Source of the DNA: Terriglobia bacterium
GTDB taxonomy: Bacteria > Acidobacteriota > Terriglobia > 20CM-2-55-15
DNA: 64,000 bases
Reading direction: 5' to 3'
Assembly: GCA_965218585.1 (NCBI GenBank)
Contig: CBDCLE010000002.1
Span: 416,001 to 480,000, forward strand
Below are positions 1 through 5,586 of the stretch, piece after piece (position 1 is the first letter of the stretch; every line of letters begins with the position of its first letter). The notes beneath the pieces were generated by a model that saw only the letters and a list, made by a program, of their open reading frames with translations, had not been told where the DNA came from and ran no database searches. A program made the translations under genes and the position numbers.

Positions 1-909
1 TTCGGCCCCCATGCCTCCGGTCGCCGCCCCGATGAACACATCTTTCAAACGTCGGTTGCCGTTGCGGTTCAGTCCCCGCGTGGCGATCGGCTTTCGACGA
101 CGTACCACACGACTCCCTTCCTGCTCATACTCCGCACTCATGTGCATTGCCACGGCCAGACCGCTGTAGTTCCAGAGCTGGCGTTTGGTTCGAAATCGAT
201 GCGGGGTGTCCCCCGTCGCTACAATCAAGGCGCAACGTATCGGTCCCAACTGGGGAATCGTCTGCAATATCCCCACCGCACGATGCTTGCGGCTCTCGGT
301 TAACATCGCCAGCTTCGCTTTTTTTCTTAACCCTCTCAGATGATCCAGCTCCTCATACAACCATCCGGTACGCCGCCGTGCACCGGTATTGGCGAGCTGT
401 TCGATCCAGTGTTCCCGCTGCGATGGGAGGTAGACGCCGTGGCCCGGCGTCCGGATCCCACGTCCTCGATACATTGCCTTGATCCGAACCATCGTCCGCT
501 GCGTATCCAGGGTCAAGGTCTCATATCCGCGGACCAGTTCTTTCAACGTCCGCGTCGCATCGTGCCCGTGGTAGACCGACCGCAGCCATCCGGCCCGGAG
601 CAGCTCGGCCAGTTTCAGGGCATCCACCCGGTCGGTCTTGGACCCGTCACTGAGCAGTTTGTTCCGTCTGGGATCACACACGATCACTTCGCTCACATAT
701 CCCCGGACCACGTTGTAGAGCCATTCGGCCTGCGTGGTTTCTTCAAACGTCACGTGCAGCTCACCACTCAGACTCTCCAGCAAATCAATGATTGGCCCGG
801 CCTGGGTCTCTACGATCTTTTCCCAGACCAGTTTGCCGTCTGCGTTTAAGACCATCACCACCGTCGTTGCCTGGTGCACATCCATGCCGATATACTTGGC
901 CTGTTTCAT
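1..909 (-). CDS. IS110-family transposase/recombinase, 3' end truncated by window edge
   Basis: Not in the ORF track because no stop lies in the window. Manual translation from ATG at 909: MKQAKYIGMDVHQATT...VTFEETT...DPRRNKLLSDGSKTDRVDALKLAELL...LQTIPQLGPIRC...FRTKRQLWNYSGLAVAMHMSAEY...NGNRRLKDVF. This shows the RuvC-like DEDD motifs (YIGMDVH, E, KTDxxDA) plus the C-terminal Tnp domain; AAGGAG RBS upstream. Confidence 0.93.
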   Translation of the reverse strand, partial: MKQAKYIGMDVHQATTVVMVLNADGKLVWEKIVETQAGPIIDLLESLSGELHVTFEETTQAEWLYNVVRGYVSEVIVCDPRRNKLLSDGSKTDRVDALKLAELLRAGWLRSVYHGHDATRTLKELVRGYETLTLDTQRTMVRIKAMYRGRGIRTPGHGVYLPSQREHWIEQLANTGARRRTGWLYEELDHLRGLRKKAKLAMLTESRKHRAVGILQTIPQLGPIRCALIVATGDTPHRFRTKRQLWNYSGLAVAMHMSAEYEQEGSRVVRRRKPIATRGLNRNGNRRLKDVFIGAATGGMGAE

Positions 910-1018
910 TTACGTGCTCCTTTGTCTTTGAATTCAACGCAGCTACGTTGAATGGGTTGTTGTCGGGAGATTTTCCTCCTGGCAACAGCCGACAAAGGGG
1001 CGTCCTTCCTTATAGCGT
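1..1018 (-). mobile_element. IS110/IS1111-family insertion sequence, left part
   Basis: Recombinase gene plus about 110 bp upstream with two hairpins and a TATAAG -10-like hexamer (minus strand, 1009-1014) near the presumed end. The boundary is approximate. Confidence 0.6.
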
Positions 1019-1307
1019 GTTGCTGTGCCAAGAGCCACCGAAGAAAAGATTCAATTCGAGATCTCCCGACCCCTGAGACAGGGCGGGACGGGCGGTGAGG
1101 AGCAATCCGATCAAGAGGACACCTAAAGAGAGCCTACGCATGCGTGAACCTCAACCCTGCGCAGATAGCCTGCACACGGTTCTCCAGGCGCGCTCGACCG
1201 AAAACGACCTTATGGTTCCTGAAACAGTAACGGAAAGGACTCGCTAAAGTCAAACAAACTTAGGGCTTATGGCCGTTTGAGAGGGTTCGACCCGGATGCC
1301 CCTTTTG

Positions 1308-1337
1308 TTGACACCGTGTCTGGGGTTCATTTAGAAT
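1308..1337 (+). promoter_or_regulatory. sigma70-type promoter for the S55 operon
   Basis: TTGACA (1308-1313), 18-nt spacer, TAGAAT (1332-1337), about 130 bp upstream of the ATG at 1470. Confidence 0.6.
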
Positions 1338-1469
1338 TCAAATGCCGCTTTTTATTTGAAAATATTGGGCTTATGAGGCTTGCTCGACATTTCATGCGGA
1401 GTTTTTCCCAGAGCCTCGGCGACCTCGAACCAGGGGTCGGGCGGCCGAACAAGTGAGTGACGTAAGATC

Positions 1470-3353
1470 ATGACGCGATGGACCATGTTAGTTCCTGTCT
1501 TGGCGGCTTTTTCTCTACTGGCCGTCCCGCTGGCGAACGCCCAGAGTGGGGAGGAGGTCGAATTCTTCCCCGTCGACGAGCTTCGGGAAGGAATGCGGGG
1601 GGTTGGGCTTACGGTTTTCCACGGGACGACGATCGAGGAGTTCGACGTCGAGATCCTCGGCGTACTTAAGAATTCATCACCGAAGCAGGACATGGTTCTG
1701 GCACGCCTTTCAGGTGGTCCCCTGGCCCAGACCGGCGTAATGCAGGGGATGAGCGGAAGTCCGGTCTACATCGATGGCCGTCTCCTGGGCGCCGTAGCTT
1801 TCGGCTTCGTCTCGTCGATGGAACCGATCGCTGGCATCCAGCCCATATCCCAGATGGTCAACATTCTCGACCAGCCCGACGATCTCCAGAACGCAGAAGC
1901 CGCCGCTGGTCGGTTTCCAGCTGTGGCGGGGACGCTTCCCGCAGAGGGCGTCCGAAGTTATATGAATCGCGCGATGACGGGCCCGGACTCGAGTGACTTC
2001 TCCAGCAGCTATTTGCTGCCGCAATCCTGGACCGAGTCCGCAGCAGCAGCGTCGATGCGATCTACAGGACTTCAGCCGATCCGCACTCCGTTGTTCTTCT
2101 CTGGCGTATCGCCTGTTGCGGTTGCCGAGTTCGCCGGTGTGTTTGAAGCCTTTGGCTTCACGTCGGTCCAGGGCGGCGGAGCAGGAAGTGCCAGCTCTAT
2201 CCAGGGAGTTGAGGGTGGCGAGATACTGCCGGGCGCATCGATTAACGCGGAACTTGTTCGCGGAGACATCAACGTCAGTGCGAATGGCACGGTCACGCAC
2301 GTAGACGGCGACAAAGTGTACGCGTTTGGGCACCCCTTCCAGTCTACGGGTCCCACCGATCTGCCCATGTCTCGGGGATACGTGATTTCGTTGCTGCCGA
2401 ACCGGACGACTTCTTTCAAGCTTGCCGTTCCCATGGATGTTGTCGGGAACTTCCAGCAGGATCGGTCTACCGGTATTTTTGGCCGTCTCGGTGGCTCGGC
2501 GAGCATGATCCCGGTCACAGTAGAACTCCAGACGTCACGTAACGGGGTCGAGCGTTACGAATATGAGGTTATCGATGACCGGTTCATGACGCCGCTCATG
2601 ATGAACATGACTCTATTCAACCTGATCCTGGCGACGGAGCGGAGTCTTGGAGATTTGACGCTGGAGGTCAGTGGGACGATCAATCTGGAGAGCGGAGAGC
2701 AGATCGCAGTCAATAGTGCCTTCGCAGGCGAGGCCAACGCGCCGGTTCAGGCGACGCTGGCAACGGTCGCACCCCTGAGTTACTTGTTGTCGGGAGGGTT
2801 TGAATCGCTGGAGATTGAGTCTGTCGAACTCACAGTCAGATCTACCGATAGCCGAAGGAGCGCTCGTTTGGATGCGGTCAGCGTTGACCGGACCGAGGTT
2901 CGAGCCGGTGACCTGGTTACGCTTGAGGCGACGCTCAGAACGCTGGATGGGAATGAAGTCGTGCAGCAGTATCCGATCGTGATCCCCGAAGGCCTGGCTC
3001 CGGGTCGCGTGCAACTGCTGGTTGGTGACGGTGTTGCCATCACGACCTCCGACCTCCTTCGCGCGCCGTCGGCTCCACCTCGCGATTTGGGACAGGTAAT
3101 CCGGGAACTGAACGAGCTCAGAAAGAGAGACCGGCTGTACGTCAAGCTGTTGAGCACGAATCCCGGTGCCGTTATCGACGGAGAGGAACTGCCGTCGCTG
3201 CCGCCATCCATGATGGCAATGCTCGACACAGAGCGCTCTTCGAGCACTCACACTTCCGGAACGCGAGTTTCTCCGGTTAGTGAGTTCGAGTTGAGACCAT
3301 CGGACCTGGTCATTCAAGGGCAACGGTCGCTCGTTTTGACGATCATCCCGTAA
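1470..3353 (+). CDS. Secreted SpoIVB-like serine peptidase (family S55)
   Basis: Signal peptide; G-x-T-V-F-x-G...F-x-V-E-I-L-G-V N-terminal block; GVMQGMSGSPVYIDGRLLGAV nucleophile motif; AFGHPF motif. Confidence 0.85.
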   Translation: MTRWTMLVPVLAAFSLLAVPLANAQSGEEVEFFPVDELREGMRGVGLTVFHGTTIEEFDVEILGVLKNSSPKQDMVLARLSGGPLAQTGVMQGMSGSPVYIDGRLLGAVAFGFVSSMEPIAGIQPISQMVNILDQPDDLQNAEAAAGRFPAVAGTLPAEGVRSYMNRAMTGPDSSDFSSSYLLPQSWTESAAAASMRSTGLQPIRTPLFFSGVSPVAVAEFAGVFEAFGFTSVQGGGAGSASSIQGVEGGEILPGASINAELVRGDINVSANGTVTHVDGDKVYAFGHPFQSTGPTDLPMSRGYVISLLPNRTTSFKLAVPMDVVGNFQQDRSTGIFGRLGGSASMIPVTVELQTSRNGVERYEYEVIDDRFMTPLMMNMTLFNLILATERSLGDLTLEVSGTINLESGEQIAVNSAFAGEANAPVQATLATVAPLSYLLSGGFESLEIESVELTVRSTDSRRSARLDAVSVDRTEVRAGDLVTLEATLRTLDGNEVVQQYPIVIPEGLAPGRVQLLVGDGVAITTSDLLRAPSAPPRDLGQVIRELNELRKRDRLYVKLLSTNPGAVIDGEELPSLPPSMMAMLDTERSSSTHTSGTRVSPVSEFELRPSDLVIQGQRSLVLTIIP

Positions 3354-3381: not shown

Positions 3382-5586
3382 ATGAAGAAAATCCTCTGGC
3401 TGCTGCCGTTAGTGCTTGCCCTTCCCGCGCTTGCCGTCATTCCACAGTTCTGGGAAACTCGGACGTACGACGCGTTTCGAAGAGGCGAATTGGACGGGTT
3501 GTCGGTTACCGGAGAAGGTCAGTTGGTACTGGCGCCGAGTTTCGACGCAGTTTTCGAGACCCCGGATCCGATCATCTTCAGCGCCGCCACAGATCGGGAC
3601 GGGAACGTTTACCTGGGTACGGGTCACGATGGCAAGGTTTATAGAGTGGACGGTGACGGAAACGGAAGTGTCATAGCAGATCTGGACGAGTTGGACGTTC
3701 TGGCGGTTGCTGTCAGCGAGGACGATACCGTGTTCGCTGCCACCTCTCCCAACGGCAAAGTCTACCGGATTACCACCGACGGGAACACCGAGGTCTTCTT
3801 TGAGCCTGAGGCCCGCTACATCTGGTCGATGGTGTTCGATCAGGAAGGCAGAATGCTCGTGGCCACCGGAGACGAGGGCGTGATCTACCGTGTCGATGAT
3901 AACGGGCAGAGCGAGGTCTTCTACGACAGCGAAGAAACGCACATCATAACGATGGCGATGGACGGATCCGGCAACGTGATTGCAGGCGGGGACCCCAAGG
4001 GATACGTCTACAGAATTTCCGATAGGGGCCAGCCATTCGTTCTCTACGACTCCGGGATGAGGGAAGTGCGCTCGGTGAGAGTCGCCACCGACGGAACGAT
4101 CTATGCCGCAGCGCTCAATTCACCAAGCGGACCGGGTCTTGCTGGCCCGAATCCTGCTGTAACCAGCGGACCGGGGGAAGGTGCCACGGTATCGGTCACG
4201 GTCGGAGCGGGTCAGAGCACATTCGCTGCCCAGAACAGCAACGTAAATGGAGGACAGGCAGGTGGGGCAGGACGTGGCCGGGGCGGCGCGCAGGGTCGAG
4301 GTGGCGACCGAGGTCCGGCTTCCCAGAGCGTCATTCTCGAGATCACGTCGGACGGTGCGGTGACACGCGTCTGGGAGTCCGGCGACGAGATGGTGTTCGC
4401 CCTGCTACCACGTGACGGTGAGCTTCTCTTTTCGACAGGCACGCGAGGGCGCATTTATTCCCTGGAACCCCCCGAACGCGCAACGCTGCTGCTCGAGTCC
4501 ACCGAAGAGCAGACCACGCGTCTGCTGGCTTACGGCGACCGCATTCTCGCGACGTCGTCCAACGCCGGAAAGCTCTTCGAAGTCGGCGACACGGCCGGGG
4601 CTTCGGGAGCTTACGAATCCATTGTCAGGAATACCGGAGCCACTTCGAGTTGGGGCAAGGCCCTGTGGTCGGGTAATGGCGTTGAGGTTCTTACCCGCAG
4701 CGGCAACACTGGGAGTCCAGATCAAACATGGTCTGACTGGGCTGCGGTAGCAGACGATGGTGGCGTCCGAAGTCCCAGGGCTCGCTTCGTGCAGTGGCGC
4801 GCCATTTTGAGCGACGACGGGGGCGATTCTCCGATGCTGTCATCAGTTACGCTGCCTTATCTGCAGCAGAATTTCCGTCCCGAGATCCGTGGGGTTAACG
4901 TCTTGCGTCCCGGAATCGCCTTACAGGCTCTACCGGCGGCGAACAATAACGCGGGCGGCGGAAACGCACTCAACCGAGGCGGTACCTCGGGCAGAGTCTT
5001 GCCGACCACGCCTGCGGCGCAGGCCAGGACCATCGTGCGTACAGGAGCTCAATCCCTGAGATGGACCGCCCAGGACCAGAACAATGACGCGTTGATCTAT
5101 TCCATCTTGTACCGCGCCGGAAACGAAGGAGAGTGGAAGCAACTCGTAGCCGGAATCAAGGATACCTATTACACCATCGAGCCGGACACGCTGCCTGACG
5201 GGATGTACGTTTTTCGGGTTGTTACAAGTGATATCGGATCGAATCCAGCAGAAATGGCCCTGACAGGACAGATGGATACGCAGCCGTTTGCGATCGACGG
5301 CACACCCCCGGGTGTTACGGTAGAGCAGCGGGGCGTGGCAGGACGCGCGGTGAACCTCTACGTCGACGCCAACGATGAAACCTCGACGCTGAAACAAGCT
5401 GAGGTGTCGGTGGATGCAGGGCAATGGCGCCCTGTCTTTCCTGTCGACGGCATTGTCGATTCCCAATCGGAGGTATTCGAGTTTTCTTCCCTGGAATTGG
5501 ATTCGGGCGAGCATGTCGTAGCGTTCCGAATCTACGATCAGAACGAAAATGTAGGCATCGGGAAGACGATCGTGCAGATTCCGTGA
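3382..5586 (+). CDS. Secreted beta-propeller protein with C-terminal FN3/Ig-like domains
   Basis: Signal peptide MKKILWLLPLVLALPALA; repeated blades (D..GNVYLGTG..GKVYRV, G.V.AAT.PNGKVYRI); Gly/Arg-rich linker; C-terminal beta-sandwich-like segments. Start set to ATG 3382. Confidence 0.75.
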   Translation: MKKILWLLPLVLALPALAVIPQFWETRTYDAFRRGELDGLSVTGEGQLVLAPSFDAVFETPDPIIFSAATDRDGNVYLGTGHDGKVYRVDGDGNGSVIADLDELDVLAVAVSEDDTVFAATSPNGKVYRITTDGNTEVFFEPEARYIWSMVFDQEGRMLVATGDEGVIYRVDDNGQSEVFYDSEETHIITMAMDGSGNVIAGGDPKGYVYRISDRGQPFVLYDSGMREVRSVRVATDGTIYAAALNSPSGPGLAGPNPAVTSGPGEGATVSVTVGAGQSTFAAQNSNVNGGQAGGAGRGRGGAQGRGGDRGPASQSVILEITSDGAVTRVWESGDEMVFALLPRDGELLFSTGTRGRIYSLEPPERATLLLESTEEQTTRLLAYGDRILATSSNAGKLFEVGDTAGASGAYESIVRNTGATSSWGKALWSGNGVEVLTRSGNTGSPDQTWSDWAAVADDGGVRSPRARFVQWRAILSDDGGDSPMLSSVTLPYLQQNFRPEIRGVNVLRPGIALQALPAANNNAGGGNALNRGGTSGRVLPTTPAAQARTIVRTGAQSLRWTAQDQNNDALIYSILYRAGNEGEWKQLVAGIKDTYYTIEPDTLPDGMYVFRVVTSDIGSNPAEMALTGQMDTQPFAIDGTPPGVTVEQRGVAGRAVNLYVDANDETSTLKQAEVSVDAGQWRPVFPVDGIVDSQSEVFEFSSLELDSGEHVVAFRIYDQNENVGIGKTIVQIP

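Follow-up and report, generated by a model that had tools for sequence, protein, structure and literature searches.

The window analyzed here is a 64,000-nucleotide stretch of an acidobacterial genome (G000, Terriglobia; C2:416001-480000), and the interval of interest lies on its minus strand, directly upstream of a recombinase gene of the IS110 family. Positions 910 to 1018 of the window are the short left end (LE) of a multi-copy insertion sequence (IS) of the IS1111 group, joined to host DNA at position 1018. A first-pass annotation of this DNA had treated the whole of 910-1260 as a structured non-coding flank carrying a candidate bridge RNA or seekRNA, the guide RNA of such elements. The best explanation overall, and one that we regard as very probably correct, is that the LE serves as a cis-regulatory leader of the recombinase gene and is itself no guide, while the guide RNA is encoded in the right end (RE) of the element. 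In the flagged interval there is no RNA of a new class; the 109 bases that come from the IS form a crowded end with a core dinucleotide, a subterminal repeat, a -10 box, a presumed leader switch and perhaps an antisense gene.

The boundary of the element was established by comparison of its copies. When the surrounding 6 kb were searched against the genome with BLAST, 15 more copies of a segment of approximately 1566 bp were recovered at 99.7-99.9% identity, and the sequence common to all 16 copies stops at position 1018, beyond which the flanks are unrelated. Contigs from the DNA runs X1 and X2 break at the same place, between positions 4018 and 4019 of locus L001 (window 1018/1019). The proposal of the first-pass annotation that 910-1018 is a short left end is in agreement with this comparison of copies. 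Measured from the core dinucleotide to the start codon, the LE is 109 nt long, and it is identical at all 16 sites except for a 1-base insertion in copy C25. In the orientation of the recombinase gene, the element consists of this LE, a 353-aa open reading frame (ORF) and a non-coding RE of 395 nt, which sits before the first base of the window and so lies outside it. Counting one core dinucleotide, the element is 1557 bp in size (C2:415462-417018). Relatives of the recombinase are present in 10 of 41 related genomes, G000 counted, and the order of LE, ORF and RE is the same in every element examined, including those of nine related genomes. A scan of genome contigs with a single protein as the query gave no relatives; an alignment-based query did, with 539 confirmed relatives from 596 pattern matches. 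The best 80 of these 539 were used, and all 80 are titled Acidobacteriota or Terriglobia.

The gene itself occupies positions 1 to 909 on the minus strand, where the N-terminal 303 of 353 codons of a DEDD (IS110-family) recombinase fall within the window and the remainder precede its start. An IS110 recombinase beginning at 909 had already been recognized in the first pass, and this assignment holds, as the ORF runs off the window and matches both PF01548 (E 2.4e-17) and PF02371 (E 6.2e-09). Residues D10, E56/E57, D93, D96 and S258 are invariant across 8 homologues. The IS1111 group, as set out in the sections of PMC11187229 and PMC11208160 cited here, has a short LE, a long RE, subterminal repeats, a bridge/seekRNA encoded in the RE and a junction promoter, and in its guide RNA a match to the top strand of the target lies 5' of a match to the bottom strand, the two overlapping at the insertion point. 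The element described here likewise has a short LE, a long RE, subterminal inverted repeats within the 7-17 bp range of the group, site-specific insertion in one orientation and a two-loop guide RNA in the RE.

Insertion sites were compared across the 16 copies, all of which lie in one orientation with respect to the target. The final 9-10 nt of the BLAST-defined element differ among otherwise near-identical copies, and this variable tail is therefore target DNA rather than IS. Following ..CCATAG, the base counts at successive positions are A16, A15, C11/A5, C15, G13, C14, G14, T13, A10 and T11, which yields the right-flank consensus AACCGCGTAT; the left-flank consensus, GTAAT, is weaker. Across the family, the last base of the left flank, directly before CGC, is A, or T in one clade, and right flanks begin with AC (TC in that same clade). 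A dinucleotide AC is found at both element junctions, at 1017-1018 on the minus strand in the case of the LE, and its assignment as the core rests on this flank comparison together with the reading frame of a host gene that the element has split. Window positions 1019-1141 on the minus strand encode MRRLSLGVLLIGLLLTARPALSQGSGDLELNLFFGGSWHSN, the first 41 codons, signal-peptide-like in character, of an outer-membrane-protein-like gene whose orthologues are uninterrupted in G001, G002 and G003; the description of some 350 bp upstream of the recombinase as free of any credible ORF does not hold for this part of the flank. The other 197 residues adjoin the right end of the copy at C10:159506-161071, where they start with ACC GCG TAT GAA, and this second half matches the G003 orthologue. 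The two halves are in frame only with a single AC between ...AGCAAC and CGCGTAT, which means that the core AC flanks the element on both sides and that one AC belongs to the element. A blunt insertion without a shared core was considered and rejected, because it would put the split gene out of frame. The target consensus that emerges from the aligned flanks reads GTAAT-AC-CGCGTAT. Given that the halves of one gene adjoin two different copies, those on C2 and C10 have exchanged flanks, either by IS-IS recombination or through a repeat assembly error.

The evidence that carries the placement of the guide RNA comes from the RE. The bridge/seekRNA of G000 maps to C2:415640-415787 on the minus strand, within the 395-nt RE, and the RE alignment displays a conserved scaffold broken by two variable segments. 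Parsing with five fuzzy anchors succeeded for 87 of 96 elements, 86 of them distinct, and the nine in which an anchor was lacking were left out. Guide 1 consists of the 12-14 nt after the first anchor and is the reverse complement of the right flank; in G000 it reads AUACGCGGUU (element positions 1262-1271), the reverse complement of the flank consensus. Guide 2, the 8-9 nt before the second anchor, has the same sense as the left flank plus core, and in G000 reads AUGUAAUAC (element positions 1297-1305). Both guides change with the target in many separately retargeted lineages (CTCATTGAC, ACTAACCAG, ACTTCTGGC, CGTTTTGAC and ACTTCCGGAT), and 32 distinct guide pairs occur among the 75 elements scored. 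The longest exact match between guide 1 and its own right flank has a median of 8 in these 75 elements, as against 4 in 992 cross pairings; for guide 2 and its own left flank the median is 6, as against 3 in cross pairings (32 distinct guide pairs). A consensus structure from 38 distinct sequences (RNAalifold) contains 19 pairs, 8 of which show compensatory changes, and is organized in two modules, each with an outer stem, a large internal loop and an inner hairpin. The first module carries guides 1 and 2. The second carries AUAGA-AC, in the same sense as the right end with its core; in the clade with TC junctions it is AUAGA-UC, such that loop and junction co-vary. By these comparisons the guide RNA of the family lies in the RE, with two loop segments that co-vary with the insertion flanks. 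The first-pass assignment of bridge/seekRNA to the LE flank is contradicted by this placement, and the accompanying suggestion that its loops might match the target or the junction found no counterpart: no LE hairpin loop matches the target, and no LE segment varies with it.

What the LE does contain is, first, one half of a putative promoter. The subterminal inverted repeat TATAAGGAAGG (1004-1014, minus strand), a motif conserved in 54 distinct LEs, has CCTTCCATA as its partner in the RE. The LE version, CTAT(AA)GGAAGG, compares with the RE reverse complement CTATGGAAGG, and in the larger clade the corresponding pair is ATATAAAAAGG and CTATAAAAAGG. Included in the repeat is TATAAG (1009-1014, minus strand), which the first-pass annotation had proposed as a -10 box, and the proposal is corroborated by the RE terminus, which reads ...TTGACA-GCCCCTTCCATAGA; a circle would accordingly have TTGACA, an 18-nt spacer and TATAAG. 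The joint expected in such a circle is ...CCATAGA-AC-GCTATAAGG, that is, ...CCCCTTCCATAGA-AC-GCTATAAGGAAGG. No such joint was reported in four sequencing runs, which is not evidence of its absence. A junction promoter has been demonstrated experimentally for ISEc11, according to the sections of PMC11187229 cited here. The element would excise as a circle in which the TTGACA of the RE ends up 18 nt upstream of the TATAAG of the LE, and the promoter so formed would transcribe the leader, the recombinase gene and the downstream bridge/seekRNA. Pairing of this RNA would then involve each of the two strands of the target (GTAAT-AC-CGCGTAT), as well as the donor ends that surround the AC core.

The resemblance to ISEc11, ISPa11 and ISKpn4, as these are portrayed in the cited sections of Siddiquee et al. 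2024 (PMC11187229) and Durrant et al. 2024 (PMC11208160), extends to most parts of the element: a DEDD recombinase with PF01548 and PF02371, a short LE, a long non-coding region 3' of the gene, subterminal inverted repeats of approximately 11 bp, and, as predicted for this element, an RE -35 and LE -10 brought together in the circle. It further includes an RNA with a 5' segment complementary to the top strand of the target and a 3' segment complementary to the bottom strand, an overlap of the guides at the insertion point, and natural retargeting among relatives. The differences are the host, here an acidobacterium of the Terriglobia, and a distant recombinase with its own form of the serine motif. 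In addition, the element has a 2-nt core, AC or TC, at both junctions, unlike ISEc11, which is described as adding no bases; a duplicated 2-nt core at both junctions is a feature of IS621 (CT) and ISPpu9 (AG).

The second component of the LE is a predicted leader structure. In the sense of the gene, the minimum free energy (MFE) and centroid folds agree on a three-way junction at -36.6 kcal/mol (z -3.3, with none of 200 shuffles doing as well). Its helix P1 places an anti-Shine-Dalgarno segment GCCCCTTTGTC (991-1001, minus strand) opposite 916-926 on the same strand, which contains the Shine-Dalgarno sequence AAGGAG (917-922). The pairing, of GCCCCUUUGUC (1001-991) with GACAAAGGAGC (926-916), is an 11-nt inverted repeat of 91% complementarity that the first-pass annotation had not listed. 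P1 is the sole structure that RNAalifold recovers from 54 distinct LEs, with six pairs, one of them changing from G-C to A-U in 6 sequences, and it is recovered again in the 7 closest sequences. Between the two strands of P1 lie the hairpins that had been noted from the outset, both of which are present: an 8-bp hairpin (932-939/946-953) and a 15-bp hairpin (955-969/976-990), the latter forming a perfect 15-pair helix on the plus strand only. The larger one, hairpin 1 (P2; 955-990, minus strand), has a counterpart at the corresponding place in 54 of 54 distinct LEs when each sequence is folded singly, with arms that differ widely among them. Hairpin 2 (P3; 932-953, minus strand) is found only in this element and in clades 64-82% identical to it, as an insertion, and two of its pairs show compensatory changes in 3 of the 7 closest sequences.

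We read the LE as a cis-acting leader that would keep the ribosome site paired. Transcripts reading in from host genes would hold the full anti-Shine-Dalgarno arm, and those made from the junction promoter would begin within this arm or immediately ahead of it. Over 54 sequences, the unpaired probability predicted in silico for the Shine-Dalgarno sequence averages 0.27 when the RNA contains the full LE and 0.44 when it is cut at the assumed start, the site being more open in the cut RNA in 41 of the 54 and less open in one. The leader would limit translation, above all in transcripts that read in from host genes, and it may act together with an antisense RNA started from a -10 box at 891-896, which is taken up below.

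Several observations weigh against this reading of the element and its LE. The recombinase departs from its group in two respects. The serine motif here is GLAVAMHMSA (GL-V----SA), where the IS1111 motif in the C-terminal domain is GL-P----S(t)G in the cited sections of PMC11187229, and the match to NCBIfam NF033542 (E 1.6e-37) scores 129.5 bits, below the 140-bit cut-off. Relatives have SA, SS or SG at the same spacing, with V or I in place of the proline, and the solved ISCro4 and IS621 transposases give weak matches to the recombinase over its N-terminal part only. In view of its structural features, the element is best classed as an IS1111-group member that has diverged in serine motif and NCBIfam score; the IS1111 bridge-RNA predictions in the supplements of PMC11208160 might already contain close relatives. 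At the right junction, 5 of the 16 copies read ATAGA-AA-CGCGTAT, not ATAGA-AC-CGCGTAT. Concerning the guide RNA, its donor loop would by our own reading pair weakly with the left end, to which its AGCG makes a short match judged by visual inspection; folded singly, the RE RNA does no better than shuffles (z +0.6); and an Rfam search of the whole element gave chance-level snoRNA matches only, with no family for the RE RNA. Contigs of the metatranscriptome runs X16 and X17, 90-99% alike, cover parts of the RE and gene and none spans the LE (L001 3900-4018), contigs of this kind being unable to show absence, strand, level or transcription. Within the LE, covariation is thin, amounting to 1 compensatory pair in P1 over 54 sequences and 3 pairs over 7 sequences, and hairpin 1 was not recovered family-wide by RNAalifold on MAFFT alignments of the LEs. 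For this very element no opening of the Shine-Dalgarno sequence is predicted (0.21 vs 0.20), and the comparison as a whole is one in which the start is assumed and the effect of truncation is uncontrolled. Lastly, the LE fold of this element is much more stable in antisense (-53.9 kcal/mol) than in sense (-36.6 kcal/mol), and the same is true of its two closest relatives.

This final point bears on the strongest of the alternatives, which is compatible with a sense-strand leader and would be an addition to it rather than a replacement. It holds that the plus strand from about 904 to 1010 encodes an antisense small RNA, in the manner of Asr9/Asr10 or RNA-OUT, from a promoter inside codons 5-15 of the recombinase gene; we consider this a real prospect, albeit one somewhat short of an even chance. 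Such an RNA would start near 903-905, approximately 7 nt past the -10 box, would have its complement in the start codon, the Shine-Dalgarno sequence and the leader over its full length, and would govern recombinase translation, either through occlusion of the ribosome site or through unfolding of the leader helix. There is precedent in the cited sections of two reports: Asr9 is a stable antisense RNA to a structured tnp 5'-untranslated region and raises translation (PMC8450116), and Asr10 has been reported in ISPpu10 (PMC12288879). The candidate promoter, found by a scan with 9 of 12 matches, is TTGCCT, 18 nt and TATACT (867-896, plus strand), with the -10 box at 891-896 over codons 5-7, of which it is the complement (AAG TAT ATC). 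Across 52 sequences this box reads TATACT in 47, TATATT in 4 and CATACT in 1. Tyr6 is encoded by TAT in 78 of 78 distinct ORFs, and in 52 of 52 of a smaller set. Of the 144 codon columns that are conserved and degenerate, no other is completely fixed, and TAT makes up 14-74% of the six further columns with a conserved Tyr. Conservation of the -10 at synonymous sites in this way argues for a promoter, although a fixed TAT could serve another nucleotide-level function, and the sequences are related, so the counts overstate their independence. The -35 box is poorly conserved (CTTCCT in 15 of 52, TGGCTT in 7 of 52), and the promoter scan finds none in locus L081. Evidence at the 3' end is similarly divided. 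In several relatives the fold is followed by a U-rich UUUUUAUAUU-like sequence, the complement of the subterminal repeat, and a terminator-like site was flagged by the scan in L081; on the other side, the tail past the fold here, UCCUUCCUUAU, lacks the form of a canonical terminator. In a crude U-tract test, itself confounded because the U run often pairs within the predicted fold, just 19 of 54 sequences qualify.

The question of strand had been approached in the first pass through the wobble pairs of the 15-bp hairpin, the bias of which toward the plus strand was taken to suggest an RNA antisense to the recombinase leader. In this element the plus strand does fold very stably. The 71 nt at 925-995 reach -35.0 kcal/mol on the plus strand (z -6.5, 0 of 200 shuffles as good) and -22.7 kcal/mol on the minus strand (z -3.2, 1 of 200), and longer plus-strand segments give -53.9 kcal/mol (895-1018; z -7.0) and -57.1 kcal/mol (903-1030). 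The bias holds for this element and its two closest relatives, but it does not extend to the family: from the anti-Shine-Dalgarno to the Shine-Dalgarno sequence, the sense strand is the more stable in 45 of 54 distinct LEs, which counts against an antisense RNA, and the nine that favour antisense include this element and its two nearest relatives. The closing pair of hairpin 2, moreover, is U-G on the sense strand in 7 of 7 sequences of its clade. Since strand preferences conflict both across the family and between hairpins, the wobble bias does not decide the strand. The idea of an antisense RNA nonetheless gains some support from the conserved -10 box, and the invariable use of TAT for Tyr6, as a constraint that points to an antisense promoter, offers a testable lead on recombinase control.

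IS10 provides a useful comparison for regulation of this kind. There, an outward promoter lies just inside the transposase gene, the stem-loop of RNA-OUT covers the ribosome-binding site, and fold-back inhibits read-through transcripts. An outward promoter, an antisense stem-loop and read-through occlusion are all three predicted here, although the DDE transposase of IS10 belongs to an unrelated family and there is no sequence relation between the elements. Combining sense and antisense components, the LE could be a compact two-strand switch, in which P1 on the sense strand silences read-in translation and a family-wide antisense RNA covers the leader, its -10 box fixing Tyr6 as TAT; as a whole, we think this combination possible and on balance unlikely. 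The 3' end of the antisense RNA may in that case be formed by the complement of the subterminal repeat and the junction -10 box. Were such a switch to exist, circle formation and the antisense level would govern recombinase synthesis and, through it, RNA-guided transposition.

Closer relatives for comparison are ISPpu9 and ISPpu10 of Pseudomonas putida, the only elements for which a literature search on antisense control in IS1111-type bridge recombinases found antisense RNAs; a two-strand control like that proposed above turned up in none of the literature so searched. In the cited sections of the reports on them (PMC8450116; PMC12288879), these are IS110-family elements whose recombinase leader is able to fold over the ribosome-binding site, and they have an antisense RNA gene upstream of and overlapping the start of tnp, with a stable predicted antisense fold; a candidate gene of the same position and character is present here. 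The leader of ISPpu9 is described there as long, is said to include the bridge RNA and has a strong promoter of its own, whereas the leader here is 109 nt, carries no guide and apparently depends on a junction promoter. Unlike in ISPpu9 and ISPpu10, the antisense RNA is here deduced from the conserved -10 box only.

A further alternative is that the LE hairpins work as DNA: they would be bound or bent by the recombinase or by some factor of the host, or would be extruded and in that form aid synapsis of the left end. Their position, 10-45 nt inside the subterminal repeat, and the occurrence of a hairpin at the corresponding place in all 54 LEs would suit such a role, as would the wobble pairs, which favour different strands by clade and even between the two hairpins of this element, something that a palindrome tolerates. 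Positions that are G-U on one strand are, however, plain mismatches in DNA, and P1 specifically takes in the Shine-Dalgarno sequence, which points to RNA. According to the cited sections of PMC11187229, a mini-element of ISEc11 reduced to 50 bp of LE and 46 bp of RE transposes if it is given the protein and the RNA, so that sequence beyond approximately 50 bp is dispensable in ISEc11. We judge a DNA-level role improbable, and prefer a leader that functions as RNA.

For the remainder of the flagged interval, beyond position 1018, the first pass had suggested a likeness to a related element's right end, and with it an orphan guide or nested remnant; the comparisons do not uphold this. Positions 1019-1469 have no second copy in the genome (BLAST), and a search of 1019-1260 against 96 related elements at word size 7 returned a trivial self-overlap and one 12-nt match (E = 3.3). 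Folding of this host flank is no better than that of shuffles (z +0.5 and +1.8). The window is collinear with G003 over 1021-2200 at 74% identity, and synteny is found also with G002 and G001. By these comparisons 1019-1260 is host DNA, resembling no IS end. One feature had seemed to link the two parts, a 10-bp inverted repeat (962-971/1061-1070) that competes with the 15-bp hairpin. The repeat is exact; as a structure we take it to be chance, because it joins IS DNA to the coding sequence of one site, the other 15 flanks being unrelated. Positions 1061-1070 are codons for SGDLE of the split gene, 43 bp from the junction, in a sequence that differs in orthologues, and by our own estimate approximately 0.1 such 10-bp pair is expected in 400 bp. 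That 910-1260 encodes a guide RNA in sense or antisense, or that 1020-1260 is an orphan guide or right-end remnant, is therefore a reading with scarcely any chance of being right: the region is structured, IS110-group elements encode their bridge RNA upstream of the recombinase (PMC11208160, in the sections cited), and an exact 10-bp complement spans the junction, but the target-covarying segments of the family lie in the RE, an LE that is constant over 16 sites save for one inserted base bears no match to the target consensus, Rfam gives no match, the complement falls in host coding sequence that orthologues do not share, and what lies beyond 1018 is single-copy and syntenic.

With the guide RNA placed in the RE, the element belongs to an acidobacterial bridge/seekRNA family in which at least 32 distinct natural guide pairs are carried on one conserved RNA scaffold. 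The family offers a comparative set for the rules of guide pairing, the choice of core (AC vs TC) and the mismatches tolerated by IS1111-type recombinases, which are less studied than IS621. The 16 copies have also reshaped the genome of G000, as an outer-membrane-protein-like gene is split across two contigs and fliQ is truncated. To the right of the window copy lies the 3' third of the flagellar export gene fliQ, and after it come fliR, flhB and flhA (C2:413001-415461; L001 1-2461), and the fliQ of G001 aligns by BLAST up to C2:415459, within the variable tail. Neither fliP nor the 5' part of fliQ was found in the 26-contig assembly, which is 95.5% complete, using the G001 gene as DNA and as protein query, and the flagellar export operon appears to be truncated at the IS. 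The left flank of the C10 copy was considered as the missing 5' part of fliQ and rejected, having no resemblance to G001 fliQ. In two congeners fliQ is uninterrupted, with GTACCGCGCATCGTC and GTGCCCCGTATCATT at the place of insertion; the congeners have AC or GC there, and the second core base therefore seems to have changed on or after insertion. One right junction among the copies is one base shorter, and that of the window copy is at C2:415453-415462.

Some copies of related elements lie within larger duplicated segments. Loci L008 and L016, both from G003, share 2.4 kb, and L004 and L005 (G007 and G017) share approximately 100 nt past the LE; L008 has a degenerate right end (CTCCAAGA). A copy is thus not always an independent or an intact insertion. 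The X1/X2 contigs match only the terminal 36 nt of the LE (L001 3983-4018) and then continue into a different hairpin-1-like sequence, which suggests that another, related element sharing this terminus is present in these samples; no copy of that kind occurs in G000 itself. A 25-mer, TACTCGGTGCCGACCGCGTATGTGG, that contains the target half-site ACCGCGTAT occurs at six places outside the IS in G000 (e.g. C2:78496, C9:153579 and C10:144274), and may belong to another repeat family.

Upstream of the split gene, positions 1142-1300 on the minus strand contain long blocks that are invariant across four genomes of the genus, in which the adjoining coding sequence matches at 72-75%. This is the leader and promoter region of the split gene, and it may be a cis-regulatory leader or a small RNA; it has no Rfam match, a search of window positions 1-3000 giving chance-level snoRNA matches only. 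In the G003 orthologue of the split gene (L104 914-1620), two overlapping ORFs lie in different frames, pointing to a frameshift, or else to an error of sequencing, close to an A/T run. A promoter-like sequence on the opposite strand, TTGACA, 18 nt and TAGAAT (1308-1337, plus strand; promoter scan), lies upstream of a gene at 1470-3353 that Pfam assigns to the S55 peptidases.

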